A stretch of DNA of 54,320 bases from a virus (IMGVR_UViG_3300031673_000059:1-54320), one strand, 5' to 3'; counted from the stretch's first letter, positions 11,043-51,066 are shown. A program made the numbers and translations. The notes: a model not told the origin generated them from the sequence alone.

Positions 11043-11059
11043 GATGAGCTGCTCTCATC
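11043..11059. promoter_or_regulatory. Inverted repeat GATGAG-N5-CTCATC, between the XRE regulator and the divergent helicase gene. Candidate operator. TATAAT lies at 11089..11094.
   Basis: Read directly from the sequence. Confidence 0.35.
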
Positions 11060-11113
11060 CTATCGGAAGGGGCGACCTCAGGCGGCGGTATAATCACTCA
11101 TCCGGGAGTGTTC

Positions 11114-12922
11114 ATGTCTGAAGATATCGCTCGACGCATCGAAACCGTCGAGAGCCTGCTCGGGTTCAATCTGCGCAGCTACCAGAACCAGGCGCTGACC
11201 GCCATCGGTCAAGGAAAGAACGTGATCTTGCACGTTCCGACCGGCGGCGGAAAGACGGTTGCGTTTCAAGGCGCTCCCTACGTGTCCCCCCATGATGGGA
11301 TCACGGTGATCCTCTATCCGCTGAGGGCTCTGGTGAAGGATCAGACTCGTCGCTTCAAGGAGATCGGTCTACCGTCCGTGACGCTATATGGGGAGACTCC
11401 TCCTAAAGACCGTCCGGCTATCTATGAGAGGATCGCCAACGGTAGCGCCAAGATCCTCCTTACGACTCCCGAGTCGTTCGACATGAATCGCCGCCTCCAG
11501 GCGGTACTCACTGAGCGAGGCGTGTCAGTCCTTACGGTTGATGAGGCCCATGCCTACGAGGAGTGGGCCGACGGCTTCAGACCGACATACCGGCGGGCCG
11601 GGCACGTCGCCCAGCGTGTAGGTGTGAAGCAGTTCCTCCTCTGCTCGGCGACCCTGACATCCAAGGGGTTCAAGACGGCTAGGGAGACCATCGGCCAGGA
11701 CAACTGGACCATCGTTCAGGTCCCGCCCATCAGGTCCAATCTCGTATACCGAGATCTGAGTGAGCCCAGCAGTGAGATCCTCTGTCGCGCCGTTCGCGGG
11801 GATGGTCTGGAAGCTCCTGGGATCGTCTTCTTCACGACGGTCAAGTGCCTGAACGAGACAGCCGACTTCATCGAACGGAAGACCAGGCGAAAGGTCCTTC
11901 GCTACAACGGTGGTATGACCGGCAAGGACCGCAGGGAGGCCCAGGATACTTTCATGTCCGGCGACCACTGGATCTTCGCTACCAAAGCGTTCGGCATGGG
12001 CATCGACAAGGACAACATCAGAAACATCATCCACTTCCAGCTACCCAATTCGATTCTCTCATACGCCCAAGAATGCGGAAGATCGGGTCGAGACGGCCAC
12101 GAGTCGACCTGTTTTCTGACCCAGAGCGAGGACGGCAACGCGGCCCAGTTCCTGATCAGCATGAGCGTCCCATCGATCAATCAGGTGCGCAGGGTCTGGA
12201 ACCTCCTTCAGACCCACTCCCTGAACTACGCCGACTGGTTTGATGTTGACTGGCCTGAGATCGCCAGCAGGGCGGATTTCTCGATCCAGCTGGTCCAGGC
12301 CTGTGTGAGCTGGCTGTTTACCGGAAAGATGATCGAGAAGAAGCAGAAGAGGCTCAACTGGAAGTTCACGATTCACGCTGATTCCGATGAGAAGGCCATC
12401 AAGTACAAGAGAAAGACGCCAGAAATCCTCGACATGCTGCGCGCGGAAGCGATGGTCGAGCAGGGACCTTCAACCTTCGAGCTGCGGCCTGAGTTACTGT
12501 CCGACAGTGTGGGCCAGGTGTTCGTCGGCTGGAGGGCGAAGCTTCGGAAGATGGTCGAGCTCGGGATCATCGAGATCGATGAGCCTCCTAAGGCGAAGTC
12601 TCAGTATCGATTCCTCCACAGGAGTTTTCACTTTGCCCAGGGCGAGGAGCAGCTGACTAAGTCTCGCTCAAGGGCGTTCGATCGTCTGGACGACATGCGA
12701 CGGCTGCAGGCCGCCCCTCCTCATCAACGGCGAAATCTCATGGAGGCGGCCATCTCTCTCAAGCTCGGCAACATCGATGGGCTTGAGATCATGGACGGTC
12801 AATACGATGAGCCGGTCGCGCCATCCAAGCCAGCCCAGAAGAAGAAGAAGAGCGAATCCACCGACCCGTTCAAGTTCGATGGGGACGGCGATGACGACGA
12901 CCCGTTCGTCATTCCCTTCTAG
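11114..12922 (+). CDS. RecQ-family SF2 DNA helicase.
   Basis: Motif I VPTGGGKT, motif II VDEAH, motif VI QECGRSGRDG and an acidic C-terminal tail. GGGAG lies 5 nt upstream of the ATG at 11114. The ORF track starts at the GTG at 11108. Confidence 0.8.
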   Translation: MSEDIARRIETVESLLGFNLRSYQNQALTAIGQGKNVILHVPTGGGKTVAFQGAPYVSPHDGITVILYPLRALVKDQTRRFKEIGLPSVTLYGETPPKDRPAIYERIANGSAKILLTTPESFDMNRRLQAVLTERGVSVLTVDEAHAYEEWADGFRPTYRRAGHVAQRVGVKQFLLCSATLTSKGFKTARETIGQDNWTIVQVPPIRSNLVYRDLSEPSSEILCRAVRGDGLEAPGIVFFTTVKCLNETADFIERKTRRKVLRYNGGMTGKDRREAQDTFMSGDHWIFATKAFGMGIDKDNIRNIIHFQLPNSILSYAQECGRSGRDGHESTCFLTQSEDGNAAQFLISMSVPSINQVRRVWNLLQTHSLNYADWFDVDWPEIASRADFSIQLVQACVSWLFTGKMIEKKQKRLNWKFTIHADSDEKAIKYKRKTPEILDMLRAEAMVEQGPSTFELRPELLSDSVGQVFVGWRAKLRKMVELGIIEIDEPPKAKSQYRFLHRSFHFAQGEEQLTKSRSRAFDRLDDMRRLQAAPPHQRRNLMEAAISLKLGNIDGLEIMDGQYDEPVAPSKPAQKKKKSESTDPFKFDGDGDDDDPFVIPF

Positions 12923-12987: not shown

Positions 12988-13554
12988 CTAGTTGTCCGCC
13001 GACACGACGTCCGTAGACGCCGTTGCGGTCGCAGCCTCGCTGCCTGCGTAGTAGCGAAGCCCCCTACGCTGACCCTCGGTTCGGATGTCACCGTTCTCCC
13101 GGGCAGAGTTCAGGATCCGACGGATCGTGCCCTGCGGAAGCTTGGTGTGGCCCTCGATGTCGGTCATGTTGCAGCCCTCGTTCTTCCGAACGAAGCCAAT
13201 GATCAGGTCAGGCCTGACCGGCTTTCGCTTGGTCGACTTCGCGACCGCTGGATTGGCCTTGCTGACCTTCTCCTGCCGCGTGGACTGCTTCTTGGTGACC
13301 TTCGGCTTCGAGGTCTTCTTGGTGACCTTCTTGGTGACCTTCGGCTTCGAGGCCTTCTTGGCGGCCGTCTTCTTCTTCTTGGCGGCCGTCTTCTTGGCGG
13401 CCTTCTGAGTGGTCACCCTGGGGGCTACCGCCTCCCCTAGCGCTACCGTCGTGGCCTTGTGGGCCACCCAGGTGTCGCCGACCCTGAAAGGCTTCACGCC
13501 CTGCGCCATCGCTGGCGTGATCGTGAAAACGACCGGTCCGCTCTGATTAGTCAT
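12988..13554 (-). CDS. Histone-H1/HupB-tail-like protein: Lys/Ala/Thr-rich repeats plus a C-terminal winged-helix-like domain.
   Basis: The repeat region reads AKKTAAKKKKTAAKKASKPKVTKKVTKKTSKPKVTKK. The C-terminal part reads GTIRRILNSARENGDIRTEG. GGAGGAAA lies 7 nt upstream of the ATG. Confidence 0.6.
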   Translation of the reverse strand: MTNQSGPVVFTITPAMAQGVKPFRVGDTWVAHKATTVALGEAVAPRVTTQKAAKKTAAKKKKTAAKKASKPKVTKKVTKKTSKPKVTKKQSTRQEKVSKANPAVAKSTKRKPVRPDLIIGFVRKNEGCNMTDIEGHTKLPQGTIRRILNSARENGDIRTEGQRRGLRYYAGSEAATATASTDVVSADN

Positions 13555-13825
13555 GAGAACACTTTCCTCCGTGTTGGATGGTGGTAACGATTACGGGACA
13601 GTTCAGTGTGGTCGGTGTAGGCGTATGGCGTGTCGTCCGATCAACATCGGATCCGCCTTTTGACTGAGTATTAACTGCCGTCACCGATGGTGACTCTACA
13701 CATCTGTTCCATGTCTCGCCACTAATACGGAAACGATTTCTCTCCGCAGCGCAGATTCCATCGGTCCTACAGGCGGCGGCCGATGATCGATGTGTATAAG
13801 TAGTTGCCATGGTGACAGGTTCGGG

Positions 13826-14347
13826 CTAACCCCGGCTGGACCTCTTTCGGGTCGGCCGGGCTACCGCCCTCTTCTTCTTCTTCTTCTTCTTCGTCTTGAC
13901 CTTCATCTGCCGGGTCCGCGCGTAGCTGATCTTCTTCTTGCTCTGCCGAAGTTCCAGCACGTCGTTCAGCCGCTCCTCGATGAGTCGGGTCCACTCGTCT
14001 CCTCGTGACTGACTGTCCTTTGCGATGAGGAACTCAGTCCACAGCACTCGGGTCACATCTGAGAGCGGCTGCTCTCGACTCTTTGCGTAGTCCCGGAGCT
14101 TGTCGGCGACGATGACCGGAACGATCGCGCCCATCGACTGAACAGGTCTCGGGAAGAGCCTACCGAACGGGGCGAGCTCGACCTGCTTTTCACCTGCCTC
14201 GTGAACTTCGAGTTTGACCAAGACCGTGACGGTCCGCCCTCTCTTCTCCTCGGCCTTCTTGGCCCTGGAGATCGCGTTTCGGTTGTCGGCGAGTTCGCTC
14301 TGCGTGACTTCGATCGTCGTCGCATCGAGAGAGTAGTTCAGCTGCAT
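13826..14347 (-). CDS. Hypothetical basic protein with a C-terminal poly-Lys tail (KKKKKKK).
   Basis: 173-aa ORF. The (CTT)n run at about 13868..13890 is the coding sequence for the poly-Lys tail. Confidence 0.5.
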   Translation of the reverse strand: MQLNYSLDATTIEVTQSELADNRNAISRAKKAEEKRGRTVTVLVKLEVHEAGEKQVELAPFGRLFPRPVQSMGAIVPVIVADKLRDYAKSREQPLSDVTRVLWTEFLIAKDSQSRGDEWTRLIEERLNDVLELRQSKKKISYARTRQMKVKTKKKKKKKRAVARPTRKRSSRG

Positions 14348-23096: not shown

Positions 23097-24187
23097 TGTG
23101 CGACGTCGTGCCGCTCCCTCACGAAAGAGGGGAACCGGGGCACGCCAGCGTTGGTGAGCTCTTGGTATCGGTAGGTGATGGTCGCGCCGATCATGGGCGG
23201 ATTGTCCCGTTGAGCGTCGGACATGCCCGTGCCGACCTTGAACTCGGTCCCGTCGGCGGCCCGAACCTCCAAGGCACCACATCGACCCTTGTGTCGGCCC
23301 TTGCCCTTGGTGTAGCCGGTCACGGTCGCCTCGGCGTCGTGGAAGGTCTTGACCTTCAGGAGGGAGTGGGATCGCCCCGCCTCGTAGAGAGACTCAGGTT
23401 GCCTCAGCATGAGACCCTCACCACCGGCCGCATCCATGAGGGTCAGCGCCTTCATCAGGTAGTCGATGCTCCTGCACTGGCTCTGAGCCACCGCTTCGCC
23501 GTAGGGCATGAACTCGACGACCTTGTTGACGACCTTGAATCGGTCCTCAACCCGCTTGTCGAAGCCGGGCGTGTCGAAGACGAGGTACTTGACCTTCTTC
23601 CAGAGGTCTCCAGCGTTGTGCCGTCGGACGATGCTGACGGTGTCCTGGAAGAGACCTCGACCGACGAAGAGCTCGCCGTCGAGAGGGAAGGAGGGGAACC
23701 CTTCAGTGAACCAGGCGGGGGCGTGGTAGACGTTGCCGAGCCGGGATAGGAACTTCGTGCCGTCCCAGTAGGCTCGGACGCCGTCCAGCTTCTCGCTCAT
23801 CCACCACCCGGCGATGTCCTGCTCACCGTCCCACTTGTGGGCCAGGAGGATCTCAGGGACCTCCTTCGGAGCGACTACCAGCTTAGGAGCGGCGGCCTTC
23901 TTGGTGCCCTTCTTGGTCTTAGGGGCGGCGGCCACACCGTCGAGAGGGTTCTTCTTCTTCTTCTTCTTCCACGCCGTGGGCATGTTGTCGTGACCGACCC
24001 GGGAGACCTCGGCCTCAGCGCCCCGGTGTGTCACAAGGTGCTTACAGGTCCGGATGTCGATCGCGTGCGACTGCATCTTCCAGGCGACGCAGGAGCAGTC
24101 GTAGACGCCCCCAATGTTCCGCAGAACGTAGGGCGTCTTACCAGAACCCTTTACCTCAGTCGTCTCGCCATCATTCAGGTCAGCCAT
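23093..24187 (-). CDS. ATP-dependent DNA ligase with an N-terminal SWIM-like zinc finger.
   Basis: Motif I KLDGVR (adenylation lysine), EGLMLR and LLKVK. The N-terminal Cys motif is CSCVAWKMQSHAIDIRTCKH. Confidence 0.8.
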   Translation of the reverse strand: MADLNDGETTEVKGSGKTPYVLRNIGGVYDCSCVAWKMQSHAIDIRTCKHLVTHRGAEAEVSRVGHDNMPTAWKKKKKKNPLDGVAAAPKTKKGTKKAAAPKLVVAPKEVPEILLAHKWDGEQDIAGWWMSEKLDGVRAYWDGTKFLSRLGNVYHAPAWFTEGFPSFPLDGELFVGRGLFQDTVSIVRRHNAGDLWKKVKYLVFDTPGFDKRVEDRFKVVNKVVEFMPYGEAVAQSQCRSIDYLMKALTLMDAAGGEGLMLRQPESLYEAGRSHSLLKVKTFHDAEATVTGYTKGKGRHKGRCGALEVRAADGTEFKVGTGMSDAQRDNPPMIGATITYRYQELTNAGVPRFPSFVRERHDVAH

Positions 24188-33840: not shown

Positions 33841-34806
33841 CTAGTAGGGCGTTCCGGCCAACGTGATCAGAGATGCGAACTCCGGCCTCACGAGTGTGAT
33901 TTTGTGCCGGGTGCGGATCGCGCGCCGAAGAGTCTTGTCGGCCGGATCTACGAAGTTCGGTGTGATCTCGACCATGGTGTAAGGACTGTAGATGACGCAC
34001 GTATCCATTACGCTGTCGTCTGCCTGATACCAGGCCAGCAGCTTCCCTACGGGGAAGAGGGGATCCAGGTAGACGCCCCTGCCGTCAACCTCGCCGATTT
34101 TGGCGATGCCGTCTGCCTCTTGGACGTCAAAGCCAAGCTGGGCCAGCATCGCCGCGTTGCCAATGACCCTGTTTGCCGGGTTCCGCTGAGACCCCCGATG
34201 GACGATGTGGGCCGCCCTGTCCAGAGCTTCTTTGAGATCACCGCCGGCGGCCAACTCGATCTTGTTGTTGTCCAGGACGCCGTTCAGGATCGTTCCTACG
34301 ATCTCCCGAGCCACCTCGGTCAGGAGTGCGTCGATGTTCAGAGCCCCCTCTTCGTTGACGTCGGTGTGTGCCTTGCAGCGCCTCGACTCCGCTCGGATCT
34401 CTTGAGGGATGATGTCCAGCACGACGGAAGGCACCTTGACCTTCCTCTCGACGCCGTCTTGAATCAGGGTCGCCTCCTCCATCTCCCCGAAGCGCGGCTT
34501 GTAGTAGTAGACGATCCCGATCGGCCCAGTCATCGGCTGCACCGCGCAGAGGTCCGGGAGCACGTGGGTCCGGACCGAGGCCTTGAGGTTATCGAAGAGA
34601 TCCTCCGTCCACGAGCCGAGGACCAATGCCCGGGTCTCCTCGACGAGACGCTGAAGGTGTCTGCTCTGGTTCTCGCAGACCATGGCAGCGATGTTCGACC
34701 TGTAGCCGTCCTCTAGGCCCCACTTGGTGCGGAGCTTCTCTAGATAGCTCTCGTCCGGCATACCATCAAGCTGAGTCATAGTTCCTCCTGATGCGGAGGG
34801 TACCAC
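33841..34806 (-). CDS. T4 gp24-like capsid vertex protein (paralog of 34825..35778).
   Basis: KLRTKWGL...AMVCENQ, VQPMTGPIGIV, NPANRVIGNAAMLAQLG and YLDPLFP...VIYSPY match conserved T4 gp23/gp24 blocks (KW..L.G...A.I..FENQ; CGVQPM..P.G; N.I..S.N....L; Y.D....YYAPY). Confidence 0.6.
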   Translation of the reverse strand: MVPSASGGTMTQLDGMPDESYLEKLRTKWGLEDGYRSNIAAMVCENQSRHLQRLVEETRALVLGSWTEDLFDNLKASVRTHVLPDLCAVQPMTGPIGIVYYYKPRFGEMEEATLIQDGVERKVKVPSVVLDIIPQEIRAESRRCKAHTDVNEEGALNIDALLTEVAREIVGTILNGVLDNNKIELAAGGDLKEALDRAAHIVHRGSQRNPANRVIGNAAMLAQLGFDVQEADGIAKIGEVDGRGVYLDPLFPVGKLLAWYQADDSVMDTCVIYSPYTMVEITPNFVDPADKTLRRAIRTRHKITLVRPEFASLITLAGTPY

Positions 34807-34824: not shown

Positions 34825-35778
34825 TCAGACAATCTGCGCCAACCGCTCCAGGACGTTGACCTTAACCACCTGGATGTGGCTCGGATGGGCCACATGGATG
34901 TTGTGGTTCAGGTAGATCGCGAAGTTGTGGCGGCCGTCCATCGGATCGAGCGGGTAGCAGAAGGGCGAGTAGACGACCGGCGTGTCTACGATGCTTGGTC
35001 CCATGTACCAGAGCATTACTTCACCGTCAGGGAACAGCGGATCCAGGTAGACGTGCATCCTCTGCTTGTAGACGCCTACCTTCTTCACCAGGCCGGTATC
35101 AGTCGTGTCCCACTCGTCCGGATCCTCCGGCGAGAAAAGCTCCAACATCTTCTCATTGCCGATCACGTGATTGGCCGGGCCCCGCATGCAGCGCTTGTGG
35201 ACCATCTGCGAGGCGCGAAGGATATCAGTGTCGAACGCGGTGTAGGTCGACTCCAACACATTGCCGGCGGCCGATCCCGCGCCGTGCATGACGCCCAACA
35301 CCTCGCGGATGGACGCCAGCATGACCGAGTCGAACACGCTGTCGATGAGCGCGAAGTTTCCTGGGTAGATCCTGACGCCGAGTCGCCTGATGGAGGCTTG
35401 GACGTTGACCGTCTGCAGGTTCAACGTCATCGTCGGGATCGATGTGCTCCCAGGAGTAGTGGGTCCGGCCGGCGTGGTGATGTTGGTTTGGCCGTAGAAG
35501 CCGATGGTGTCTGATGGCCTCCGTAGGGGCTGGACCGACACCATGTCGATCAGGGGGCAGTGCACCCAGGCCTTCACGAGAGCTCGGTAGAACTTGTCCT
35601 TCCAGTTGTCGCCATAGGTCTCTTCCAGATCATCGGGGATCAGCGATGAGCAAAGGACGTTGGCCTGGTTCTCCAACAGTAGAGCGATGACGCCAGAGCG
35701 CTTGTGATGGCCGGGGAGGTAACCCTCCCACTTCTCGGTCAGAGCCTTGATGTGGTCGTTGTCCAACATGGTGGGCAT
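34825..35778 (-). CDS. T4 gp23-like major capsid protein (short form).
   Basis: LTEKWEGYL...ALLLENQ, VQPLRRPSDTIGFYG, GPANHVIGNEKML and YLDPLFPDGEVMLWY...VVYSPF. Paralog of the adjacent gene. Confidence 0.6.
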   Translation of the reverse strand: MPTMLDNDHIKALTEKWEGYLPGHHKRSGVIALLLENQANVLCSSLIPDDLEETYGDNWKDKFYRALVKAWVHCPLIDMVSVQPLRRPSDTIGFYGQTNITTPAGPTTPGSTSIPTMTLNLQTVNVQASIRRLGVRIYPGNFALIDSVFDSVMLASIREVLGVMHGAGSAAGNVLESTYTAFDTDILRASQMVHKRCMRGPANHVIGNEKMLELFSPEDPDEWDTTDTGLVKKVGVYKQRMHVYLDPLFPDGEVMLWYMGPSIVDTPVVYSPFCYPLDPMDGRHNFAIYLNHNIHVAHPSHIQVVKVNVLERLAQIV

Positions 35779-35803
35779 AGTACCACAAGCCCACCCAAGG
35801 TCA

Positions 35804-41427: not shown

Positions 41428-41814
41428 CTAGCCGGGGCTGTCTTCGTTTCCGGCCGCCTGTTTTGCCGCCAGGGCCCTCTCGTCCATCATGTTGATCAGC
41501 CGGACCACCTTGGCGATTTTCTCGTCGGTCGTCCTGGAGTCGCAGACCTTGTCGATCACCTTCGAGCTGGCATGCTCGATGATGGCCCTGACCTTGGGCT
41601 GAAGCTGGGCGATGTAGAACTCCAGGTGCTCAGGGTGGACTGCGATATCGACCCGAGCATTGTTGAGCTTGGCGTATTCGGGGATCCCGGGGACGACCTC
41701 TTCCAAGAGGGCGGTCCTCCGCTCACCTTCCTTCGCCCCCCATTTCACGGTGAACTGGGCCAGGATTCGTTCGCGGATCTCCGCCTCGGTTGGATCAGGC
41801 GCCTCGTCAGACAT
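41428..41814 (-). CDS. Hypothetical protein.
   Basis: 128-aa ORF. Confidence 0.5.
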   Translation of the reverse strand: MSDEAPDPTEAEIRERILAQFTVKWGAKEGERRTALLEEVVPGIPEYAKLNNARVDIAVHPEHLEFYIAQLQPKVRAIIEHASSKVIDKVCDSRTTDEKIAKVVRLINMMDERALAAKQAAGNEDSPG

Positions 41815-41870: not shown

Positions 41871-41894
41871 GTACACGAGAAATATCTCGTGTAC
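41871..41894. promoter_or_regulatory. Perfect 24-bp palindrome GTACACGAGA-AATA-TCTCGTGTAC, followed by the tandem direct repeat GATAGCTC x2 (41896..41911).
   Basis: Read directly. It lies in a divergent intergenic region and shares the GTGTAC core with the left-end array and the CTTGTGTAC sites. Confidence 0.6.
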
Positions 41895-41963
41895 CGATAG
41901 CTCGATAGCTCGGAGCCACATCACAGGTATAAGAAACCACCAACCTGCAATGGAGAATAAAGA

Positions 41964-42536
41964 ATGTCGACCACCTCAATCCCAACCGAGATCGCCCAGC
42001 GCTGCGACGCCACCAAGATCAAGGTCGGAGACATCTACTCACGTCATTCGTTCGGCACGGTCAAGCAGATCGAGAAGGTCTACGACCACGTCACCCGACG
42101 GAACATCACGATGCTGACGATCGAGAACTCCAACGGCAACAGTTGGCAGATCGGCGCTGACATCGCCGCTCTGGAGTTCAGCATCGCCTCGCAGTTCGAG
42201 GACGAGGAGAAGGTCTCCCGCACCCGCATGATCGAGATCATGCTGGAGCACCCCCGCACGGCCATGACCATCAACTTCAACAAGAAGCCCAAGGTCGAAG
42301 ACGTCGCCAAGGCCCTCCAGGAGGGCAAGACCGGCACGGCCAAGGACTGGAAGGCACTGGTCAAGGAGCAGCTTGAGGGCGCCGAGCGGACCATGCTTGG
42401 GTACCACGTCTGTAGTTTCGACGAACACCGCCGCCTCCGCTTCCAGGACGCTGAGGCGAAGGGCCAGCGATTGGTCGATCCTCGGACCTTGAACTGGTTG
42501 GTGGTCGACCGCGTCAAGTACACCATCACTAAGTAG
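41964..42536 (+). CDS. Hypothetical protein.
   Basis: 190-aa ORF. GGAGAA lies 9 nt upstream of the ATG. Confidence 0.55.
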   Translation: MSTTSIPTEIAQRCDATKIKVGDIYSRHSFGTVKQIEKVYDHVTRRNITMLTIENSNGNSWQIGADIAALEFSIASQFEDEEKVSRTRMIEIMLEHPRTAMTINFNKKPKVEDVAKALQEGKTGTAKDWKALVKEQLEGAERTMLGYHVCSFDEHRRLRFQDAEAKGQRLVDPRTLNWLVVDRVKYTITK

Positions 42537-42546
42537 GAGAGTCGCC

Positions 42547-43098
42547 ATGATCAAGGGATTGCGTTGCCCCAACTGCGACACCACCGTCCACAAGGACACC
42601 ATCATCGACTTCCTTCTCAGCAAGAAGGCCTCGCACCTCCGGTGCAAGAACGCCTTCTGCAACATTCGCTGGAACCGATCCGCCTTAGAGGCCAACAAGG
42701 CACAGTTCCTCGGTGCGGAGGCGCCGAAACCAGCTCCTAAGCCCGTCGAGGCCTCAGTCAAGGTCGCGATGACGAAGATGGTGGTTCCGGCCCACACGAC
42801 CGTGGATGTGGTGAAGCGCGCGGGTATGCCGGTCACGCCGACGACAGGTAGCTGGTTGGACCGGATCCGAACGATCGCGCAGCACCATGCCCAAACCAAC
42901 GGCGTGGTGTCCATCGATGATCTACGTCTCTGGGCGGACATCCACAAGGATCACCCGACCAGCTCAAGCTCGTGGGGCGCGGTCTTCCAGGGCGACCAGT
43001 GGAAGAAGGTAAGTGAGAAGAACTCCACCTACGCCAAGAGCCGCTCGCGGAAGGTCTCCGTCTGGGCGCTTAGGACTCCTGCCAGGGTGTCCGCCTAA
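42547..43098 (+). CDS. Hypothetical protein with an N-terminal zinc ribbon.
   Basis: CPNCDTTVHK...CKNAFC. Confidence 0.5.
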   Translation: MIKGLRCPNCDTTVHKDTIIDFLLSKKASHLRCKNAFCNIRWNRSALEANKAQFLGAEAPKPAPKPVEASVKVAMTKMVVPAHTTVDVVKRAGMPVTPTTGSWLDRIRTIAQHHAQTNGVVSIDDLRLWADIHKDHPTSSSSWGAVFQGDQWKKVSEKNSTYAKSRSRKVSVWALRTPARVSA

Positions 43099-43407
43099 GT
43101 GGACGTCGACGCAGTTCGCAGAGCAGCAAGCGAGCCATGCGCAGCTTCCCTGACGTCTTGTTCAGAGTGCAAGGGTTCAGGGGAGTGTACTGCTGATGTG
43201 AATGACATTGGTGACTGCAAGAAGTGTGGCTGGTCAGCAGAGAACCACTGGGGCGGATCGCGGCGGTGCACTTCTTGTTTTGGCTGGGGCACAGAGACAG
43301 AGTATCCTTGCTGGCAGTACATCAACGACACGCCTGACCTTTGGTGCGACTCCTGTAAGGCGCAGCCGCCCGAAGTGACGGACGAGCAGTTCTACGAGGA
43401 GCATTAG
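43099..43407 (+). CDS. Small Cys-rich protein.
   Basis: CSECKGSGEC...CKKCGW...CTSCFGWG...CDSCK. Confidence 0.5.
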   Translation: MDVDAVRRAASEPCAASLTSCSECKGSGECTADVNDIGDCKKCGWSAENHWGGSRRCTSCFGWGTETEYPCWQYINDTPDLWCDSCKAQPPEVTDEQFYEEH

Positions 43408-44108
43408 TGGCATCAACTCGCGAGACGACGGGTGAACAGCAGGTTCCGGACATCGTCTGGGATCTGCCTCACTTCCAAAGCTGGCTGCAGGCCCAGAAAG
43501 GCGCCGGAAACAGGCTCGACGGGTTCAAGCCTGTTTTCCTCTTCCCTGCCGGGGGAAAGCCTTTCTTTTGGGCAGCCCACGTCAACGTCTACGTGGCATC
43601 CGAGAACCGGAACAAGGTCAACGAGGTGGTTATCTCTCGGCCGGACATCATGCACATCGTCCTGCTCCACAAGCCACTCAGGCTGAGTGACAAGATCAGG
43701 GCGGTGATGGTGCGGGAGTTCCGCTCGCCGGCGGCCACACCGAACGGGTTCATTCTGGAGACTCCCGGCGGAAGCTCGCTCAAGGGCGAGGACCCGCTGA
43801 CCATCGCTTCACAGGAGCTCGAAGAGGAGACCGGCATGGTCATCAGTCCAGATCGGCTAGTGCCCCTTGGGGCTAGGCAGCTGATGGGGACGATGTCTGC
43901 TCACAAGGCTCACGTCTACGCCGCATTGCTCAATGACCAGGACATGGACAGAGCATTGGCAGAGGCTGGGAAGACGCACGGCAACGAGGGCGACTCGGAG
44001 CGAACCTTCGTCGAGGTGCACGACGTTGGCATGCTCGTGCGTGAGCCCACCACCGACTGGGCTACGCTGGGTATGATCTACGCGGCGGCCGAAGCGCTCG
44101 GAATCTAA
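43407..44108 (+). CDS. Nudix hydrolase (ADP-ribose pyrophosphatase-like).
   Basis: Nudix box GGSSLKGEDPLTIASQELEEETG. Confidence 0.7.
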   Translation: MASTRETTGEQQVPDIVWDLPHFQSWLQAQKGAGNRLDGFKPVFLFPAGGKPFFWAAHVNVYVASENRNKVNEVVISRPDIMHIVLLHKPLRLSDKIRAVMVREFRSPAATPNGFILETPGGSSLKGEDPLTIASQELEEETGMVISPDRLVPLGARQLMGTMSAHKAHVYAALLNDQDMDRALAEAGKTHGNEGDSERTFVEVHDVGMLVREPTTDWATLGMIYAAAEALGI

Positions 44109-44149
44109 TCCATCTCCTTGTGCCCCATGGTGGGGTACAGACGTCCGTT

Positions 44150-44190
44150 GAAGAGGCCGGGACCGCAACCCCGGCCTCTTCGCTTGTACT
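44150..44190 (+). terminator. Strong hairpin terminator. 12-bp perfect stem GAAGAGGCCGGG/CCCGGCCTCTTC with an 8-nt loop.
   Basis: Read directly. It lies after the Nudix gene stop. The next gene has its own TAGAAC start motif. Confidence 0.6.
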
Positions 44191-44239
44191 TCGATGAATC
44201 AGGGCTCTTAGACGTTGGCGGTGAAAGGTAGAACACACC

Positions 44240-44416
44240 ATGAGTCAAGTCCCGTGCACCGGCCCTGAGTGTCTGCTCTGTAAGCTCCTTGGCGAGCCCA
44301 CCTCCGTTCAGGTTCCGGTCAAGGACCTGAACGACGACGGCAAGGTCAAGTTGATGACCATGAAGAAGAACAAGGCTCTGGAGCTCGGCCTGATCAAGGA
44401 CGAGGCTAATGACTGA
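44240..44416 (+). CDS. Small protein of 58 aa with CxxC...CxxC (below the ORF-track cutoff).
   Basis: MSQVPCTGPECLLCKLLGEP... GGTAGAAC-N5-ATG. The stop overlaps the next ATG. Confidence 0.5.
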   Translation: MSQVPCTGPECLLCKLLGEPTSVQVPVKDLNDDGKVKLMTMKKNKALELGLIKDEAND

Positions 44417-44756
44417 GACGCAGACCAGACTCAATCTCCTCGACCGACTGGCGATGATCGCCGAGACCAAGGAGATCAAGATCAACGTCCACGGAATGGA
44501 TGGCAACGCCGGGAACCTTATCGGCGTCTGCAAGTCGGCCATGTGGGCAGAGAAGCTCCCGCCTGCAGTCGTGGGGACCTTTCAGCGTGAGGCCCGATCC
44601 AAAGACTACGCCCACGCCCTGGTGACCTGTGACCTGTGGTTCACGCTCGTCGACATCGCACCGTCTGGATCGAGCGGGTCTCTCATCGGCAGCTTGCGGC
44701 GGCTCGGCCTGGCGCCGAAGCCCCAGGAGGAACTCTGTTGGAGAGGGTGGGACTGA
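44409..44756 (+). CDS. Hypothetical protein.
   Basis: 115-aa ORF. Confidence 0.5.
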   Translation: MTETQTRLNLLDRLAMIAETKEIKINVHGMDGNAGNLIGVCKSAMWAEKLPPAVVGTFQREARSKDYAHALVTCDLWFTLVDIAPSGSSGSLIGSLRRLGLAPKPQEELCWRGWD

Positions 44757-44953
44757 TGCCTGAGCCGAGGATCAGGCTCTACTGGAGCAAGAGGGAGAAC
44801 TCCCTGATGGGGGACAATGATGAGGGCGCCGGCAGAGGCACCGTCATCTACCTTTTCTCGCTCTTTGACAAAGACGTTCGAGACGAGCTCGAACGGCGGG
44901 GCTACGACCTCACGACCCTGAGGTTCCAGATCAGGAAGAAGCCTGATGCCTAA
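44756..44953 (+). CDS. Hypothetical small protein.
   Basis: MPEPRIRLYW... TGATG overlap with the upstream gene. Confidence 0.45.
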   Translation: MPEPRIRLYWSKRENSLMGDNDEGAGRGTVIYLFSLFDKDVRDELERRGYDLTTLRFQIRKKPDA

Positions 44954-45470
44954 GTACCGGGAGGAGCGACAACTCAAGGCCCCGGTCCCCGGAGCCTTCG
45001 GGCTCGGCGCCAACGAGGACGCGCGGGCCAGGGACCTGTGGCAGCTGACCCAGCGACAAGCTCGGTATAGGGACAGGCTCTACATCTTCGTCGAGGAGGA
45101 GTATGGCTACGCCTCTTACCTGTGGACTTATCCCGGGACCCCAGAAGAGCTCGTCGATGACTGGTGCGCGGGTAGGGTTCCGTGGAGCGGACCGCTCGAC
45201 AAGCCCCTCTACAGAGGGGAGTTCAATCCGGCCGCCTTCCACACGCACGAGGCGAATCGAGGCATGCCCTATCCGCGATCTCTGGAACTACGGCTCACAG
45301 AGACCAACCAGGTGGTCGAAGGGTTCTCCCATATCAGCCACTTCGATGGGATCGCCCACTACCATGAGGAGGATGACTCCCACCTAAGGGTCGGCTTCTA
45401 CGAGGTCAACGGGTTCCGAAAGCCCGAGGTCGTGTTCCACGTCCTCGATGCGCTGGCCGCGATTACATAG
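44946..45470 (+). CDS. Hypothetical protein.
   Basis: 174-aa ORF. Confidence 0.5.
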   Translation: MPKYREERQLKAPVPGAFGLGANEDARARDLWQLTQRQARYRDRLYIFVEEEYGYASYLWTYPGTPEELVDDWCAGRVPWSGPLDKPLYRGEFNPAAFHTHEANRGMPYPRSLELRLTETNQVVEGFSHISHFDGIAHYHEEDDSHLRVGFYEVNGFRKPEVVFHVLDALAAIT

Positions 45471-46029
45471 CCATTCCGCCGTAGGCGGAGCGGTCCATCA
45501 TCGGGTCGGTGTTGTCCGTGCCGGAGTCTGGCAGCGATAGGAGAGGCATGCGGTCGAGCTCATCGAACTCGCTGCCGTCTACCGTCTGGTAGCGCTGCAG
45601 GATGAGCATCTTCGTCTCGTCGTCGATCAGCTTGTCGAGCGCAGGGAAGACCTTGGATTCTTCTTCCTGGAAGTGATGATCGAGGCCTTCGAGGATCACG
45701 AACACGAGCTGGCGAGCCTGGTCCTCGACGTTCGTAAGTCTCGCTGAGAACAGGATCGTGTTCAGGCGGCCGATCCGAGCGAGCGTCTGGTCGTGCTCCT
45801 TGAAGAGCTCAGGCAGGACCTTGTTGTCCGCCTTGAGGAACTTCATCCCGATCAGGTAGAGGACCGATTCCTCCCGCAGAACATGGGACTGGAGCAGGTC
45901 AGACATCTGCTGAGATGTATGCCGCATGCCAGGGATGTCGAACCGTTCGGTGTGGGCTCTCAGCTCACCGGCTAAGGTCCTTACCCGGGCGTGATCGCGC
46001 AGCAGGGGCTCAATGATGCTCTTTGACAT
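45463..46029 (-). CDS. Hemerythrin-like (HHE cation-binding) domain protein.
   Basis: LLRDHARVR...HVLREE...LDHHFQEEESKVFPAL gives paired H..E and HH..EE metal-ligand motifs. Confidence 0.5.
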   Translation of the reverse strand: MSKSIIEPLLRDHARVRTLAGELRAHTERFDIPGMRHTSQQMSDLLQSHVLREESVLYLIGMKFLKADNKVLPELFKEHDQTLARIGRLNTILFSARLTNVEDQARQLVFVILEGLDHHFQEEESKVFPALDKLIDDETKMLILQRYQTVDGSEFDELDRMPLLSLPDSGTDNTDPMMDRSAYGGMAM

Positions 46030-46076
46030 ACCTGATCTCCAGGGCAGCTGGACATCAGTAGGATAGCATCGTAAAC

Positions 46077-46820
46077 CTAGTTATCGAAGGCGATGACGAT
46101 TCTCACCTGATCCGGCGGTCCGAGAGCCACCAGCGAGGGGATCACGTCCACAAAGTTCTGGACGACGTCCCGGTAGGTCCTGGGCAGGGTGAGGGCCACG
46201 TAGGGTCCCAGCTGTTGGTAACCCCCGCCCAGACGGCACTTGCGTCGCCTGACCAGCTTCTTGGTCGTGTTGCTCAGTAGCAGCAGAAGCATCTCATCCT
46301 CGGTCACCTCTCTGTGGACGGCCACCAGGTCCTTGTGCCACATCGCCCGGCCGGTGACGTATTGCTCCTCCTCCAGCCTGGAAGGGAGCTTCCCGGTGTC
46401 CTTCCACTCAAGGTATTGGTTGGCGAATAGCGCCATTTTCTCGTGAAAGCAGACCGTGTCCCAGTCAGCGTCGAGGAGCTCCTGGACCGTGAAATGGGTG
46501 TGGGAGTGATACTCGTGGCTCTCGGCGTCAAGGGCTTTCAAGGTCGCCTTCGCGGCGTCTTCTGGAAAGCCCCGATTAGCGAATAACGCATCAACTGATC
46601 TCCATCGAACGCCGGCCAGGACTCCGAACAGAGCGTAGTTCCTCTCAGAAAGTTCGTTCAGATAGTCCGGCCATTCAGCCAGCCACTCGTCGTAAGGGAC
46701 ATCCTCACCTCTGTCCTCTCGACGACGACGGCTGGACCGGCGGCCATCCTTCGAGTCACGGAGCCCCCACCGGCCGTTTCGGCCCTTCACCTCGATCACA
46801 GGATGCGCGTCGGTTCCCAT
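46077..46820 (-). CDS. Hypothetical protein.
   Basis: The start is at 46820 (MGTDAHP...), preceded by GGTAGAAC-N5. Confidence 0.55.
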   Translation of the reverse strand: MGTDAHPVIEVKGRNGRWGLRDSKDGRRSSRRRREDRGEDVPYDEWLAEWPDYLNELSERNYALFGVLAGVRWRSVDALFANRGFPEDAAKATLKALDAESHEYHSHTHFTVQELLDADWDTVCFHEKMALFANQYLEWKDTGKLPSRLEEEQYVTGRAMWHKDLVAVHREVTEDEMLLLLLSNTTKKLVRRRKCRLGGGYQQLGPYVALTLPRTYRDVVQNFVDVIPSLVALGPPDQVRIVIAFDN

Positions 46821-46884
46821 GTTTAGTTCTACCTTCGATGAATCGCTGTTGGTCGCTCGTTGGTTCTGAAAGGTAGAAGAACGT

Positions 46885-47580
46885 ATGACGCACCTGTCTG
46901 ACAAGGAAAAGGAAGAGCACCTCAAGCTCGTCCTGGACGAACTCCCTCCCGAGTTCAAGAAGCTGGCCGATCTCCGGTCCTACGGACCCCAGTTGCGGGT
47001 CAGCCATGCAACGGTCGAGGTCGAACACGACTGGTACAGCAAAGCCAACACGATGAAGCTGTCCTTCAGTTACAACGTCCTGGACGAAGAAGGCGTCGGG
47101 GCTAAGAATCGATCGTGGAAGCAGCGAGGTCGAGACAACAAGTTCTGCTACGACCGATGCGCCGCACACATCGTCGATGTGCTCACCAAGTATGAAGCTC
47201 TTCAAAAGCGGCGGCGACAGGGCGATTCCATCGCCAAGAAGCGGGGCGAGGTCCTCAAGGAGGCCTTCAGGAGCGACCCTCTGCTCGGCGGCCTGGATCT
47301 TGAAGTCCAGACTAGTACCACTCCACGGACGGAGTCCGGGTCGGTAGACGTCGAAATCCGGGGCAAGGACTATTGCGGCTCCAACGCTTCGTTGAAGTTC
47401 GACGGCGAGGCCTTTCACGGCCAGGTGGACGTCTACGGGCTCTCGGCTGAGCAAGTGGCGGCCCTGATGGTTGTCGTAAGACTCGACAAGCTGGGTGTGC
47501 TCGACCTGATCGCGCTCTCTGACGACTCGATCCTCGGTGCATCCATCCGAAAACTGACCGAAGGGCTTAACAACGCATGA
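46885..47580 (+). CDS. Hypothetical protein.
   Basis: GGTAGAAG-N5-ATG. Confidence 0.55.
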   Translation: MTHLSDKEKEEHLKLVLDELPPEFKKLADLRSYGPQLRVSHATVEVEHDWYSKANTMKLSFSYNVLDEEGVGAKNRSWKQRGRDNKFCYDRCAAHIVDVLTKYEALQKRRRQGDSIAKKRGEVLKEAFRSDPLLGGLDLEVQTSTTPRTESGSVDVEIRGKDYCGSNASLKFDGEAFHGQVDVYGLSAEQVAALMVVVRLDKLGVLDLIALSDDSILGASIRKLTEGLNNA

Positions 47581-48002
47581 AGTTCTACGCCGTATTCAAG
47601 ACTGTGGTCGAGAAGCATGTCGAGCTCGACGCCGACAGCTGGGAAGCGGCGGCCGAGATCGCCAACACGATGAAGCGGCCGATCGTCCAGGCCGAGACTT
47701 CACTTGAAGTCGTCGCCATGTGTGCGTGCGAACACCCCGAGTGCGAGTGCGACTACTACGACGCGGCCCACGAGCTCGTCGGTCCTTGCAACAAGTGCGG
47801 CTTCCAGATCCTTGAGCGGGGTTGTACCGATGCGTGCAAGGACCAGCACCAGCACTCGGAGAGCGACCTCACTTACAGCCGAGGTGGCGGTTGGTGCTCG
47901 ACGAAGCACGGCCACATGTCGTGGTGCTCCCAGGCCTGCCGAGATGCTGATCGAGCTAATGATCCAGAGGTCGAAGTACTCGACAGGATGGCAGGGATCT
48001 AG
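47577..48002 (+). CDS. Cys/His-rich protein.
   Basis: 141-aa ORF. Confidence 0.5.
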   Translation: MKFYAVFKTVVEKHVELDADSWEAAAEIANTMKRPIVQAETSLEVVAMCACEHPECECDYYDAAHELVGPCNKCGFQILERGCTDACKDQHQHSESDLTYSRGGGWCSTKHGHMSWCSQACRDADRANDPEVEVLDRMAGI

Positions 48003-48244
48003 AACGAGTAGAGACCGGCCCCAGGTCCGCCTGATGACGGCGGCCGAGGAAGACCACGCTTCGCTCTCAACTTCTCATCAAGCATGGCCAGCTGCTCGAC
48101 ACGAGCCGTCTCCACGAACGGACGTAGGTCCCAGTTGTAGTCGCCCTTGACCTGGACGTTGTAGGGTCCGATCCACAGGTTCTGCTTCTCGCAGTAGTGG
48201 AACCCACGCTCGATGAGAGCCTGGCGATAGTCGTCAGGCGACAT
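47999..48244 (-). CDS. Hypothetical protein, tandem paralog.
   Basis: RGFHYCEKQNLWIGPYNV...LDEKLRAKRGLPRPP aligns with RGFRWCGNQWVGPFGI...VDEQLRAKRGQPRDP in 48412..48738. Confidence 0.5.
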   Translation of the reverse strand: MSPDDYRQALIERGFHYCEKQNLWIGPYNVQVKGDYNWDLRPFVETARVEQLAMLDEKLRAKRGLPRPPSSGGPGAGLYSF

Positions 48245-48411
48245 CGATCCACAGCTCCTCGAACTCCCCGCTCTCGCGAAGCGCCTTCAAATCGGCTTCT
48301 AAGTCTTGATCGCGCCTGGGTTTAGTATTTACCACACCGAAAACAAGGTCCCAACACCATCTAAACGCTGCTTTGATCATGGGTTAGGTCCTTGTGTACC
48401 GCAATGCAGAG

Positions 48412-48738
48412 TTACTGCCCCGGCGGCGCGGATTGGCGGTATGGATCTCGTGGTTGACCACGCTTTGCGCGCAGCTGCTCGTCGACATCAGCGAGCAGTG
48501 ACTTGCGCAGCCCCGAGATCCCAGGACCGACCATGCCGCCCATGAGGCCCGACGTTCCGATCCCGTCTGGAGTGTCGCGGCCCGACGTCGTGGGGTAGTT
48601 GGACTCGTTCGCCACGCCGGTGACGGTGATCCCGAAGGGGCCGACCCACTGATTACCGCACCAGCGGAATCCACGAGACTTGAGCTCAGCCTCGAATTGT
48701 GGAGCGGACATCGGCGGTTTATCGAACGGTCCAGACAT
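48412..48738 (-). CDS. Hypothetical protein, tandem paralog.
   Basis: Paralog of 47999..48244. Confidence 0.5.
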   Translation of the reverse strand: MSGPFDKPPMSAPQFEAELKSRGFRWCGNQWVGPFGITVTGVANESNYPTTSGRDTPDGIGTSGLMGGMVGPGISGLRKSLLADVDEQLRAKRGQPRDPYRQSAPPGQ

Positions 48739-48901
48739 AACCCCAGTCTAGCTGACGCGGGGACTAAACCGTCGGATGCAGAACGGTGTGTACAAATTCC
48801 GCTGTGGCTTTCCTACTACTGATGCGCTACGACGGACCTCAAAAAATGCGGTACCACTAAATGGTCGGTCGATGAATGCCGCCGGGTATACGTAAGCAGA
48901 G

Positions 48902-49345
48902 ATGAAGCCTACCGCCTACCGAATCAAGCGAACCAAGTTAGCCGACGCTGACACCTTTGACGGCAACCATCCGGGGCACGTCGCCTACTTACAGATCCAC
49001 ATCAGCGGCGGCCGGAAGTATGGGTTCAAGTCGAACCCGCGTGTCTGTCTTTACTGCAAGGACTACCACGAGGCGATTGATTTTCCGACGGCGGCCGCCG
49101 CCAAGAGGCAGCTCAGGTCCTCCGCCGTGAGGTCCTACTTTGCCCCGGAGATCAGCTGGGTACACGACGGCTACAAGGTCGAGGTGGTCGAGCTCCGGTT
49201 CGAGGAGTGCGACGAGACCAACGCCTTCTTCAAGGCGAAGGCGCCCTTCGAGCCTGCAGTTCCCGCCGGGCACCACGTCGTGGTCAGGGAGCGGGTGGTC
49301 TGGCCTGTTCCTCCTGTCCTCGACCGATTGGCGGCCATCGAATGA
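48902..49345 (+). CDS. Hypothetical protein.
   Basis: 147-aa ORF. CCGGGTATACG lies upstream. Confidence 0.5.
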   Translation: MKPTAYRIKRTKLADADTFDGNHPGHVAYLQIHISGGRKYGFKSNPRVCLYCKDYHEAIDFPTAAAAKRQLRSSAVRSYFAPEISWVHDGYKVEVVELRFEECDETNAFFKAKAPFEPAVPAGHHVVVRERVVWPVPPVLDRLAAIE

Positions 49346-49707
49346 CCGAAGGGGAGATCGTCGAAGAGGTCCTCGCTCGGACGAAGGAGCTCGCCAAGCT
49401 CCACGCCGCACCGCTACGGACTCACTCCGCCGGCGAGAGGGACTTCAACTTCAACAACTTCTGGTTCAAAATCTCGTTCTACGTTCCGAAGTACTGGTCG
49501 CTCTTAGGTCCGAAGTTCGGAGAGATCAAGACGCTGGCGGTCTACGCCACCGGCACCTATACCAATCCGCTTTTCTGGCTCAACCGAGAGGCGAGTAGTC
49601 CTGATGGGCTGTGGGAGATTGACAAGCCCGCGTGTGAGGGCCTTCTAATCTCGCTGCGAGCATCGATGATCCTTGATGATCTCGCGGGTATCAGTCCTGG
49701 GGCCTAA
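49342..49707 (+). CDS. Hypothetical protein.
   Basis: MTEGEIVEEV... ATGA overlap with the upstream gene. Confidence 0.5.
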   Translation: MTEGEIVEEVLARTKELAKLHAAPLRTHSAGERDFNFNNFWFKISFYVPKYWSLLGPKFGEIKTLAVYATGTYTNPLFWLNREASSPDGLWEIDKPACEGLLISLRASMILDDLAGISPGA

Positions 49708-49750
49708 GATAGACGGTCGCTGATTCTCTTCCTGACAGAAGTACACAAGA

Positions 49751-49993
49751 ATGTCTCAACCCGAGAAGACCCCTCAGGCTTACGAGGTCTACCAGCACTA
49801 CAAGGGGTCGCGCTATCTGTGTCTCGGCGTGTTCACCCACACGGAGACCGGGGAGAGCCTCGTCGCCTACCGTGAGCTGGCCAAGGTCGATGCTGAGCCC
49901 TGGGTCCGACCCCTCGGCATGTGGTTCGAGCGGGTCTGCTGCGATGACCGCAACTACTGCGGACCACGCTTCGTGAAGCTTCTGCGGACATGA
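49751..49993 (+). CDS. Hypothetical small protein.
   Basis: GTACACAAG (the reverse complement of CTTGTGTAC) lies 1 nt upstream of the ATG. Confidence 0.5.
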   Translation: MSQPEKTPQAYEVYQHYKGSRYLCLGVFTHTETGESLVAYRELAKVDAEPWVRPLGMWFERVCCDDRNYCGPRFVKLLRT

Positions 49994-50130
49994 TCGTAGA
50001 AAGATGTCACGCCAGGCTTGTGTACATCGTTTAGAGGCCAGTAAAGCCCCGTCACGGCCTTCATCACGTCTGCTTAGGGTGTCACCCAACAACGCTTTGT
50101 GTACACCGTAATGACGCTTATATAGCGCCG

Positions 50131-50397
50131 TCAGGCTTTCTTCAGGATCAGCTCGATGTTGGCGTCCCACTTGCCGTCCCGGTCAGGGATCAGGACGCAG
50201 ATATCATGCGGCTGGTAGCCGGCGACGTCGATGGTGATCATCGGATACGGAAAGGCCGGGTCGAGCGTATCAGGCACGCCGACGATGGTCCCTTCTGTTC
50301 TCGCCTCGTGAATGACCACCGGCACTCCGTCTTCCCATCGCACGACATGGTCACGCAACATGCGGATCCGGCGGCCCACGAGTGGGTGATCTTCCAC
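50131..50397 (-). CDS. Hypothetical protein.
   Basis: 88-aa ORF. Confidence 0.45.
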   Translation of the reverse strand: MEDHPLVGRRIRMLRDHVVRWEDGVPVVIHEARTEGTIVGVPDTLDPAFPYPMITIDVAGYQPHDICVLIPDRDGKWDANIELILKKA

Positions 50398-50478
50398 TCC
50401 GAACCCTCCGCCACCAGATTAGTCCATCATTCCGCGAACGGCAGGGTAGAGCCCTTTCCGGCTGGGTATAAGTGATGA

Positions 50479-51000
50479 ATGACCACACGCAAGCCCTGGA
50501 TAGAAAACGACGCCCTGGCCATCAAACAATTTGAGATCGGCTGGGCATGGCAGCGATTTGTGGGGTGCTTCTTCGCAGCTCACGGCCTGGAAGTGATGCT
50601 CCCCAAGCTCCAGATCAGGGAATCTGTGGATGACATCCCTGATTTTGCTGATGAGTGGGACTTGTCTGTGGCTGGACAGCGGATCGAGGTCAAGTCGCGC
50701 CACTTCGAATTCACCTCCGATCCGGAGTCGTTCCCGTGGGACCGTCCGTTCGTAGACACTTACGGCGGCTACGAGGTCAAGAAGGTCAAACCCATCGCCT
50801 ACGTCTTCGTCAGTCAGAAGACCGGAGCGCTCCTATCCACGCCCGCCAATGAGCAGGAGCGCGACGACTTCTGGGAGACGGTGGTCGCACCGGATCGTAT
50901 GCGAAACATCGCCCAGGAGACGTTTTACGTAACCCCAAGGGCACGCCTCTCACCGATCACACGCCTCGTTGCCCGCCTGAAGGAGATCGGCGACGGATAA
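50479..51000 (+). CDS. Hypothetical protein, possibly a PD-(D/E)xK-like nuclease.
   Basis: DLSVAGQRIEVKS gives a D...E.K pattern. GGGTATAAG lies upstream. Confidence 0.35.
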   Translation: MTTRKPWIENDALAIKQFEIGWAWQRFVGCFFAAHGLEVMLPKLQIRESVDDIPDFADEWDLSVAGQRIEVKSRHFEFTSDPESFPWDRPFVDTYGGYEVKKVKPIAYVFVSQKTGALLSTPANEQERDDFWETVVAPDRMRNIAQETFYVTPRARLSPITRLVARLKEIGDG

Positions 51001-51066
51001 CTTGTGTACCTTGTCACGCTCGTCGGTAGAACCGGCGGCCAGTGTGACATCTCGGTATAACCCAGC

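Follow-up and report, generated by a model that had tools for sequence, protein, structure and literature searches.

Do short sequence words built around GTGTAC, scattered between the genes of a viral genome fragment, belong to one regulon with a repeat array at the other end of the same fragment, or do they constitute a signal of their own? The question is raised by IMGVR_UViG_3300031673_000059:1-54320, a stretch of viral DNA of 54,320 nt (hereafter the window, i.e., the whole stretch of DNA analyzed). For this stretch, the original prediction proposed that a single sequence-specific regulator, plausibly one of three winged helix-turn-helix (wHTH) paralogs, binds both a left-end array and a set of promoters in the right-hand part. 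The dispersed element, hereafter the box, has the consensus (C/T)T(T/C)GTGTAC(A/C), and all copies found share an invariant core, YGTGTAC. Its occurrence is not random, it is confined to intergenic sequence and conserved in evolution, and it is found at the edges of exchangeable gene modules. It appears moderately probable that the box is a conserved recognition site for a sequence-specific DNA-binding regulator controlling a block of accessory genes; from these features we infer that a protein binds the box and that this binding switches neighboring promoters on or off. The original prediction is thus upheld as far as a genuine, non-random, conserved intergenic motif is concerned, while its link to the left-end array and to the wHTH paralogs is not supported, and the box set is not demonstrably one regulon with that array.

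Box sites and their enrichment

All the sites that had been listed beforehand are present where they were placed, except for one end coordinate: the TTGTGTACACC site exists but ends at 50107, not 50108. Box A, CTTGTGTACC (48391-48400, plus strand), follows the stop codon of a 108-aa gene by 11 nt and precedes the start codon (ATG) of a called 48-aa open reading frame (ORF) by 10 nt, both of them on the minus strand. On the other side of the 108-aa gene, 47 nt upstream of its ATG, box F reads GGTGTGTACAA on the plus strand (48785-48795) and TTGTACACACC on the minus strand. Box B is a copy of CTTGTGTAC on the minus strand (49741-49749); in its plus-strand reading, GTACACAAG, it is followed by one A and then by the ATG, at 49751, of a DUF1653 gene. 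Box C, CTTGTGTACA (50017-50026, plus strand), is located 23 nt past the stop codon of this DUF1653 gene in a convergent intergenic region, where box D, TTTGTGTACACC (50096-50107, plus strand), which holds the 8-bp palindrome GTGTACAC, stands in the same orientation 80 nt apart from it. Box E, a second CTTGTGTACC (51001-51010, plus strand), abuts the TAA of a 173-aa gene and lies 15 nt upstream of GGTAGAAC.

The series continues past the gene at the right end of the window, which codes for a 979-aa protein with a major-vault-protein (MVP) shoulder domain (51425-54320 in the window, its end corresponding to window-equivalent 54364 in L001). L001 stands for identical or near-identical contigs from several metagenomes, by which the window is extended 2.3 kb rightward; in the same manner, the 98.4% identical strain L007 extends it 9 kb leftward. 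Box G', again CTTGTGTACA, is found in L001 at window-equivalent 54414, just beyond the window end, about 50 nt past the MVP stop codon and directly after the terminator hairpin of the MVP gene. The block of sites had been described as ending at the MVP gene; since box G' lies beyond it, this is not so. Box C, box G' and the counterpart of G' in another strain, L017, have in common an extended module, CTTGTGTACAnCGnTTAGA...GTA.

The most elaborate site is a double box, the perfect palindrome GTACACGAGA-AATA-TCTCGTGTAC at 41871-41894. As had been claimed, it sits between divergent genes (41428-41814, minus strand, and 41964-42536, plus strand), and its arms belong to the same family as the single boxes, each being CTTGTGTAC with one mismatch. 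A degenerate box, CTTGTACTT (44183-44191, plus strand), directly follows a strong terminator hairpin (44149-44182). A variant longer by one base, (C/T)T(T/C)GTGGTAC, was also seen immediately upstream of the start codon of the second capsid gene (CTTGTGGTACtATG, 35780-35789, minus strand) and, as TTCGTGGTAC, about 50 nt upstream of box F (window 48851-48857, minus strand), where it is kept in the related phages L018, L020 and L023; GTGGTAC occurs seven times versus 3.4 expected, always on the minus strand.

The counts of these words in the window depart from chance. A specific 10-mer had been estimated to occur about 0.1 times, and this figure holds for CTTGTGTAC (0.10 expected), of which four copies were found, a number reached in 0 of 100 shuffles; TTGTGTAC was observed five times versus 0.47 expected. 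When up to one mismatch is allowed, 14 matches are obtained versus 5.8 expected, the excess being made up of five intergenic copies and both palindrome arms; six of the seven remaining matches fall in coding sequence and are background-like. The word TGTGTAC occurs six times in 54 kb, in every case between genes and within 48393-51009 (2.6 kb). A scan with a position weight matrix (PWM) over 65.6 kb, i.e., the window with its extensions, leaves only box sites above a gap in the scores, these reaching at least 14.6 and everything else at most 12.1; box F, with 12.0, falls inside the background range. None of the nine high-scoring sites lies inside a gene, and several are directly adjacent to a stop or start codon; in L001, where public gene calls cover 13.5 kb, the gaps between these calls add up to an intergenic share of only 8.5%. 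An equal frequency of the motif inside coding regions, which would have spoken against the original prediction, was seen neither in the one-mismatch scan nor in the PWM scan. Its statement that all copies are intergenic stands as well; that they lie near gene starts is correct for a part of them only, as the copies at 50017 and 50096 are between convergent gene ends and the copy at 51001 is at a stop codon.

No enrichment is seen for the bare hexamer GTGTAC when the copies in the array and in the palindrome are left aside (19 versus 12.3 expected), nor for the secondary words TGTCACGC and GATGTCAC that occur near boxes C and E. The 4-bp palindrome GTAC is the most avoided one in the window, with 79 observed versus 159 expected (observed/expected 0.50). 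Despite this window-wide avoidance every box keeps its GTAC, which suggests constraint. Regarding the avoidance itself, CTAG is the second most under-represented 4-bp palindrome (0.65), the low GTAC count may reflect restriction avoidance, and about 14 of the 79 GTAC fall in the iterons of the array and in the boxes.

Conservation of the box and exchange of gene modules

Contigs of related phages were fetched via homologues of the MVP-like, 173-aa and 108-aa proteins, and it is through the 108-aa protein that the box-keeping relatives (L018, L020, and L023) were found. At 67-82% protein identity, these relatives keep the box at matching intergenic positions while its flanks have diverged, and such a survival of orthologous copies fits sites for a sequence-specific DNA-binding protein. 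In a four-phage alignment upstream of the 108-aa gene, TGTACACAC, which is box F, is the longest invariant run, the -10 element aside; its distance to the downstream TATACT/TATAAT is 10-15 nt in the relatives and 39 nt in the window. L018 retains box A in the form TTTGTGTAC, which follows the orthologous gene and precedes the next ATG by 8 nt. The site in L020 is composed of a terminator hairpin, a full TTTGTGTAC, 16 nt, GGTATCAC, 10 nt and an ATG, and it is equivalent in position to the window hairpin at 44149-44182 with its degenerate box.

In L023 (67% identical, syntenic but inverted), the orthologues of the 128-aa and 190-aa genes enclose the palindrome in the form GTACACGAGA-TTT-TCTCGTGTAC, its flanks having diverged and its spacer being 3 nt long versus 4 nt in the window; its distance to a conserved GCGTT..AC.TA element on the side of the 128-aa gene, 24 nt, is unchanged. 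L023 also has a co-oriented box pair, including TTTGTGTACAACGTCAT, 56 nt apart in a convergent spacer, which resembles boxes C and D, and all four occurrences of TGTGTAC in 18 kb of this contig lie outside called genes.

A different kind of information comes from L017, a short contig of an approximately 96% identical strain. Identity between L017 and the window is 97-100% as far as the 173-aa gene extends and drops to 68% thereafter; box E, conserved at nine of nine positions, lies exactly at this identity switch. L017 harbors a diverged allele of a 67-aa gene, and the MVP gene and the 91-aa gene that follows it are absent; this absence identifies MVP as a strain-variable accessory cassette. 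In the replaced segment of L017, a module of about 45 nt, CTGTCTTGTGTACCAACGGTTAGATTGGCAACGTATACAG, is found in another gene context; it matches both the post-MVP module and box C, and box C itself is identical in L017. The right-hand junction (54730) is not at a box. The comparison indicates that boxes travel with, and border, exchangeable modules, the result on replacement borders being that of one strain pair. The position of the 173-aa gene is also variable, upstream of MVP in the window and in L016 and downstream of it in L013.

Candidate readers of the box

The reading that we favor is that of a site for a DNA-binding regulator, which could be phage-encoded or co-opted and could act as a repressor or as a class-II-type activator. 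Single boxes would be bound in short intergenic spaces, several of them 10-20 nt upstream of a -10-like element, i.e., in the -35 zone and in either orientation, and several directly after a terminator hairpin, while the back-to-back double box would serve as a palindromic operator between the divergent 128-aa and 190-aa genes. The orientation of the boxes with respect to the flanking genes is mixed, A and B being antisense between tandem genes, E and G' being sense, C and D pointing into a convergent gene, and F and the palindrome being located in divergent spacers. The distance to a -10-like element is variable, being 10-39 nt for box F in the different phages and between 14 and 19 nt elsewhere. 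A DNA-binding factor accounts better than an element read by the polymerase for mixed orientation, variable promoter distance and a palindrome whose spacer changes while its arms are kept.

Among the closest parallels to such a system are the stoperators of Cluster A mycobacteriophages, asymmetric sites of 13-14 bp found at more than 20 places genome-wide in an orientation that correlates with transcription (PMC9283540). Like the boxes, the stoperators, which belong to an immunity repressor of the L5 gp71 type, are short and asymmetric and occupy narrow gaps between genes, in many cases next to a stop or start codon; they include a promoter-associated operator and are bound by a phage protein recognizing an asymmetric sequence (PMC9283540). 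The boxes differ from them in their length of 9-10 bp, in being about eight sites clustered in 13 kb, in having one palindromic double box and in an orientation that does not follow the direction of transcription; a homologue of the repressor was not found.

Several observations weigh against a regulator site. No binder was found: the genes beside the palindrome are without a family or structure match, profile searches of the PDB with both flanking proteins came back empty, and single-sequence AlphaFold models of the two were unusable (predicted local distance difference test scores of 50 and 42). The position of the boxes relative to promoters is heterogeneous, two copies abutting start codons and two lying between convergent gene ends. 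Among the relatives, L013, whose MVP is 71% identical, has no cluster and a single copy, near the chance expectation, which is explicable as the spacer between a Shine-Dalgarno sequence (GAGG) and a start codon; L016, which is syntenic with a 79% identical 173-aa protein, has no box at the position of E; and L014 has no copy of the box. The sequence covered, about 66 kb, is also a part of the genome only. The box cluster was not found in L009 and L010 either, but the orthologous copies in L018, L020 and L023 speak against taking these absences for a lack of conservation. As regards known classes of phage regulators, no immunity-repressor domain (HTH plus stoperator) was found among the approximately 70 window proteins scanned against Pfam and PHROGs, a set that leaves out about 15 small ORFs, and the scanned window proteins showed no domain of the MotA/AsiA kind. 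Candidate binders encoded by the window are, besides the 128-aa and 190-aa proteins flanking the palindrome, three O-like wHTH proteins and, as an alternative also with regard to the palindromic operator, a Cro/C1-type HTH protein of 109 aa (10768-11097, minus strand).

It is fairly unlikely that the box is instead a promoter element, be it a -35-type TTGTGT read by a sigma factor or an analog of the T4 MotA box, which together with a hairpin would form a terminator-promoter cassette of the PeSL (promoter-early stem-loop) type. The MotA box, which is asymmetric and about 9 bp long, takes the place of the usual -35 element (-30/-35 zone) and is recognized by an activator of the phage. The boxes depart from it, as they show neither the fixed spacing of about 12 bp to the -10 element nor a single orientation. 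What recommends the idea is that G' and the L020 site directly follow strong GC-rich hairpins, that E and the L020 site have a canonical GGTAGAAC and GGTATCAC, respectively, 15-16 nt downstream, that C, G' and the L017 copy have a common box-TTAGA-GTA module, and that the palindrome arms each point outward to a divergent gene. However, when the phage's own -10 motif was scored for 18 sites at the expected downstream spacing, in comparison with the mirrored side and the background, a strong canonical -10 was obtained at only two (box E and the L020 site), and the mean was just slightly raised (-3.8 versus -6.0 for the mirrored control). Boxes A, B, C, and D and their orthologues face the 3' ends of opposing genes, box F in the relatives stands upstream of a TATAAT-type -10 in the opposite orientation, and no sigma-70-type promoters were found in 41.3-51.5 kb.

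PeSL elements consist of a stem-loop and an early promoter and are repeated in hyperplastic regions (PMC2839356). The boxes resemble them as repeated intergenic modules in a hyperplastic block of small ORFan genes of a phage with a T4-like capsid, some copies directly following a GGGG...CCCC-type stem-loop, and, like them, occur at borders where close relatives differ by an indel or a replacement (PMC2839356, PMC4122927). The resemblance is partial with respect to the stem-loop, which accompanies only two or three of about nine copies, and does not extend to an attached sigma-70 consensus promoter, which is lacking; the orientation is mixed, and the conserved unit measures 9-10 bp, or up to about 45 bp in one subfamily. 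A stem-loop adjoins the box at G', at the degenerate copy at 44183 and in L020; at A, B, D, E, and F it is weak or missing. The notion that the boxes are mere U-tracts of terminators was rejected, because most copies are without a hairpin and the GTGTAC part is conserved.

The proposal that one wHTH paralog reads both the array and the boxes has to be considered in the light of what the array is. It occupies 338-495 and comprises seven imperfect dyads of 14 bp, GGCAGTGTACTGCC, with a period of 22-23 bp. The iteron dyad is GGCAGT-GT-ACTGCC, with GTGTAC at the center of five of the seven units and GTGTCT in two; since these two keep the GGCAGT arm, the hexamer, which had been placed at the core of the array, is the iteron center, not a half-site. 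The reading frame is open from the third wHTH domain through the array and is called as one 521-aa gene in L007. The three tandem wHTH proteins (1757-1362, 1369-1043 and from 1046 leftward, minus strand) all match replication initiation protein or O-like families (PHROG), and the next gene codes for a DnaC-like loader, followed by DnaB, primase, a ResIII helicase and RecA; the locus as a whole covers window 1-1757 (minus strand) and L007 7062-11785. An AT-richer patch, in which the GC content dips to 0.43 (290-329), lies next to the array; the array is 100% conserved in L007, and the sequence further on varies. Phased iterons in frame, wHTH proteins, an AT-richer patch and loader and helicase genes, all of which characterize a lambda-type origin within an O gene, are thus found together. 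Because the iterons lie in an O-like frame, with loader, DnaB and primase genes next door, the array looks like the iterons of a lambda-type replication origin inside an O-like initiator gene, separate from the boxes, rather than a promoter array. Two further observations were made on this element. A possible internal start (GAGGAGG...ATGGGCATG at 133) lies where the divergence between strains begins, and matches of 9-10 nt to the iteron core, AGTGTACTGC (43184-43193) and GGCAGTACA (43313-43321), occur 130 nt apart in opposite orientation, both inside a Cys-rich 102-aa ORF (43099-43407).

With the array so understood, a wHTH paralog binding array and boxes alike through the common GTGTAC is unlikely. 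The hexamer is the unchanged core of the box in all phages and the center of five of the seven iterons, and the chance of sharing it is estimated at about 1-3%, so that a link is not absurd; this is suggestive but does not amount to evidence of one regulon. Two paralogs of small size (108 and 131 aa) essentially consist of the DNA-binding domain only and could act as regulators. Rep proteins of iteron plasmids, such as RepA of pPS10 and RepA of P1, bind the iterons of the origin plus an inverted-repeat operator with part of the iteron. Initiator-like wHTH proteins, an iteron array and a distant palindrome with 6 bp in common (GTGTAC) recall this arrangement. Unlike in such systems, however, the palindrome lies 41 kb from the putative origin, not at the promoter of the initiator but between unrelated genes that are also paired in L023; the common part is the center of the iteron rather than its arm, and binding is here a prediction. 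The determinants of the iterons look like the GGCAGT/ACTGCC arms, and the boxes have Y, not A, before GTGTAC and are devoid of GGCAGT arms. All three paralogs match initiator families beside replication genes, as described above, they are only 22-29% identical to one another, and other DNA-binding candidates exist, e.g., the Cro/C1-type HTH protein. With iterons that differ from the boxes in their arms and sit in an O-like initiator frame, the case for one regulon is weak. A bolder version, in which the O-like wHTH family would read GTGTAC-centered sites at the origin and at the boxes, coupling origin firing to a swappable MVP-bearing block with the boxes as exchange joints, is a speculation that we regard as decidedly improbable.

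It is very unlikely that the boxes are mainly short homology patches or recombination sites at cassette edges, with regulation being secondary. The identity switch at box E, the absence of the MVP and 91-aa genes from L017, the box module in its replaced segment and the variable place of the 173-aa gene relative to MVP all agree with such a role, for which PeSL-mediated shuffling in T4-type phages provides a precedent (PMC2839356, PMC4122927). Nevertheless, 9 bp is very short for homologous recombination, the right-hand junction at 54730 is not at a box, and module borders in phages generally fall at gene ends; moreover, box F and the palindrome are conserved in stable syntenic contexts, which points to a function other than exchange. 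Although a reverse-orientation box lies 0-10 nt before a start codon in four cases (B, A, the A copy of L018, and L013) and B and C are perfect complements flanking the DUF1653 gene, a function at the RNA level, as a GUACACAAR translational operator at start codons or by pairing between CUUGUGUAC and GUACACAAG copies, is extremely improbable, given that copies occur on both strands with respect to local transcription and also in divergent promoter regions, that the RNA fold of the C/D spacer is not significant on either strand (z = -0.6 and -1.0), and that the L013 case is explained by a Shine-Dalgarno sequence plus spacer.

The phage lineage and what the box means for it

The regulator site that we favor is distinct from the dominant intergenic promoter-like signal of the window, GGTA(T/G)AA(G/C), which was observed 21 times versus 2.3 expected. 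This signal typically stands 5-7 nt before an ATG, in both directions of divergent spacers down to 29 nt; examples are found at 8112, 24193 (minus strand), 31167 (minus strand)/31184, 41926, 44227, 46826 (minus strand)/46872, 50465, 51054, and 51357. It is conserved in the relatives L013 and L016 and looks like a -10-only promoter for leaderless mRNAs; its last position is not T, unlike that of the sigma-70 -10 element.

The window, with a GC content of about 60%, codes for two Gp23-like major capsid proteins, a tail-collar protein, an ATP-dependent DNA ligase, a DEAD-box helicase and a glutamine-synthetase-like protein in addition to the proteins discussed above. The closest deposited phages are metagenomic huge phages, with about 29% protein identity to the MVP-like protein, and near-identity DNA searches found no near-identical DNA in phage or plasmid collections. 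On account of this gene content, of the distance to the closest phages and of the lack of near-identical deposited DNA, the window is part of the genome of a large uncultivated phage that has a T4-like capsid gene and is known only from metagenomes. No relatives emerged from scans of IMG/VR in which the MVP protein, the 173-aa protein or their alignment served as queries, and one metagenome scan yielded a single short contig, which is unrelated. No sign of a temperate lifestyle was seen in the available phage sequence, and Rfam and tRNA scans of the window gave no matches. One contig, L005, had been taken for a deletion variant on the impression given by its gene table; this was rejected, the contig being identical and merely shorter.

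A few features of the genes themselves may be mentioned. The MVP homologue is full-length and has hundreds of bacterial homologues at about 50% identity. The two capsid genes are adjacent and in tandem (33841-34806 and 34825-35778, both on the minus strand). An 81-aa gene (47999-48244, minus strand) and the 108-aa gene (48412-48738, minus strand) are apparent paralogues by eye, both proteins having RGF..C...W.GP and LRAKRG.PR; the called 48-aa ORF lies between the two genes, and relatives carry both of them. Long AAG/CTT trinucleotide runs occur in coding regions (13368-13890, 23949-23963, 12837-12850, and 51991-52002) and imply low-complexity protein tracts rich in lysine or glutamate.

Nothing in these results requires a new kind of mechanism; what is new is the box sequence itself, in a poorly known phage lineage. 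The re-reading of the left-end array as a lambda-like origin avoids a false regulon call. The regulatory signals of large uncultivated phages are almost unknown, and the box is a concrete one, separate from the main promoter-like motif. It gives a small set of testable target genes, including that of a vault-protein homologue which varies between strains, and it offers a handle both for finding the regulator among a handful of candidate proteins and for asking whether boxes mark the seams of cassettes.

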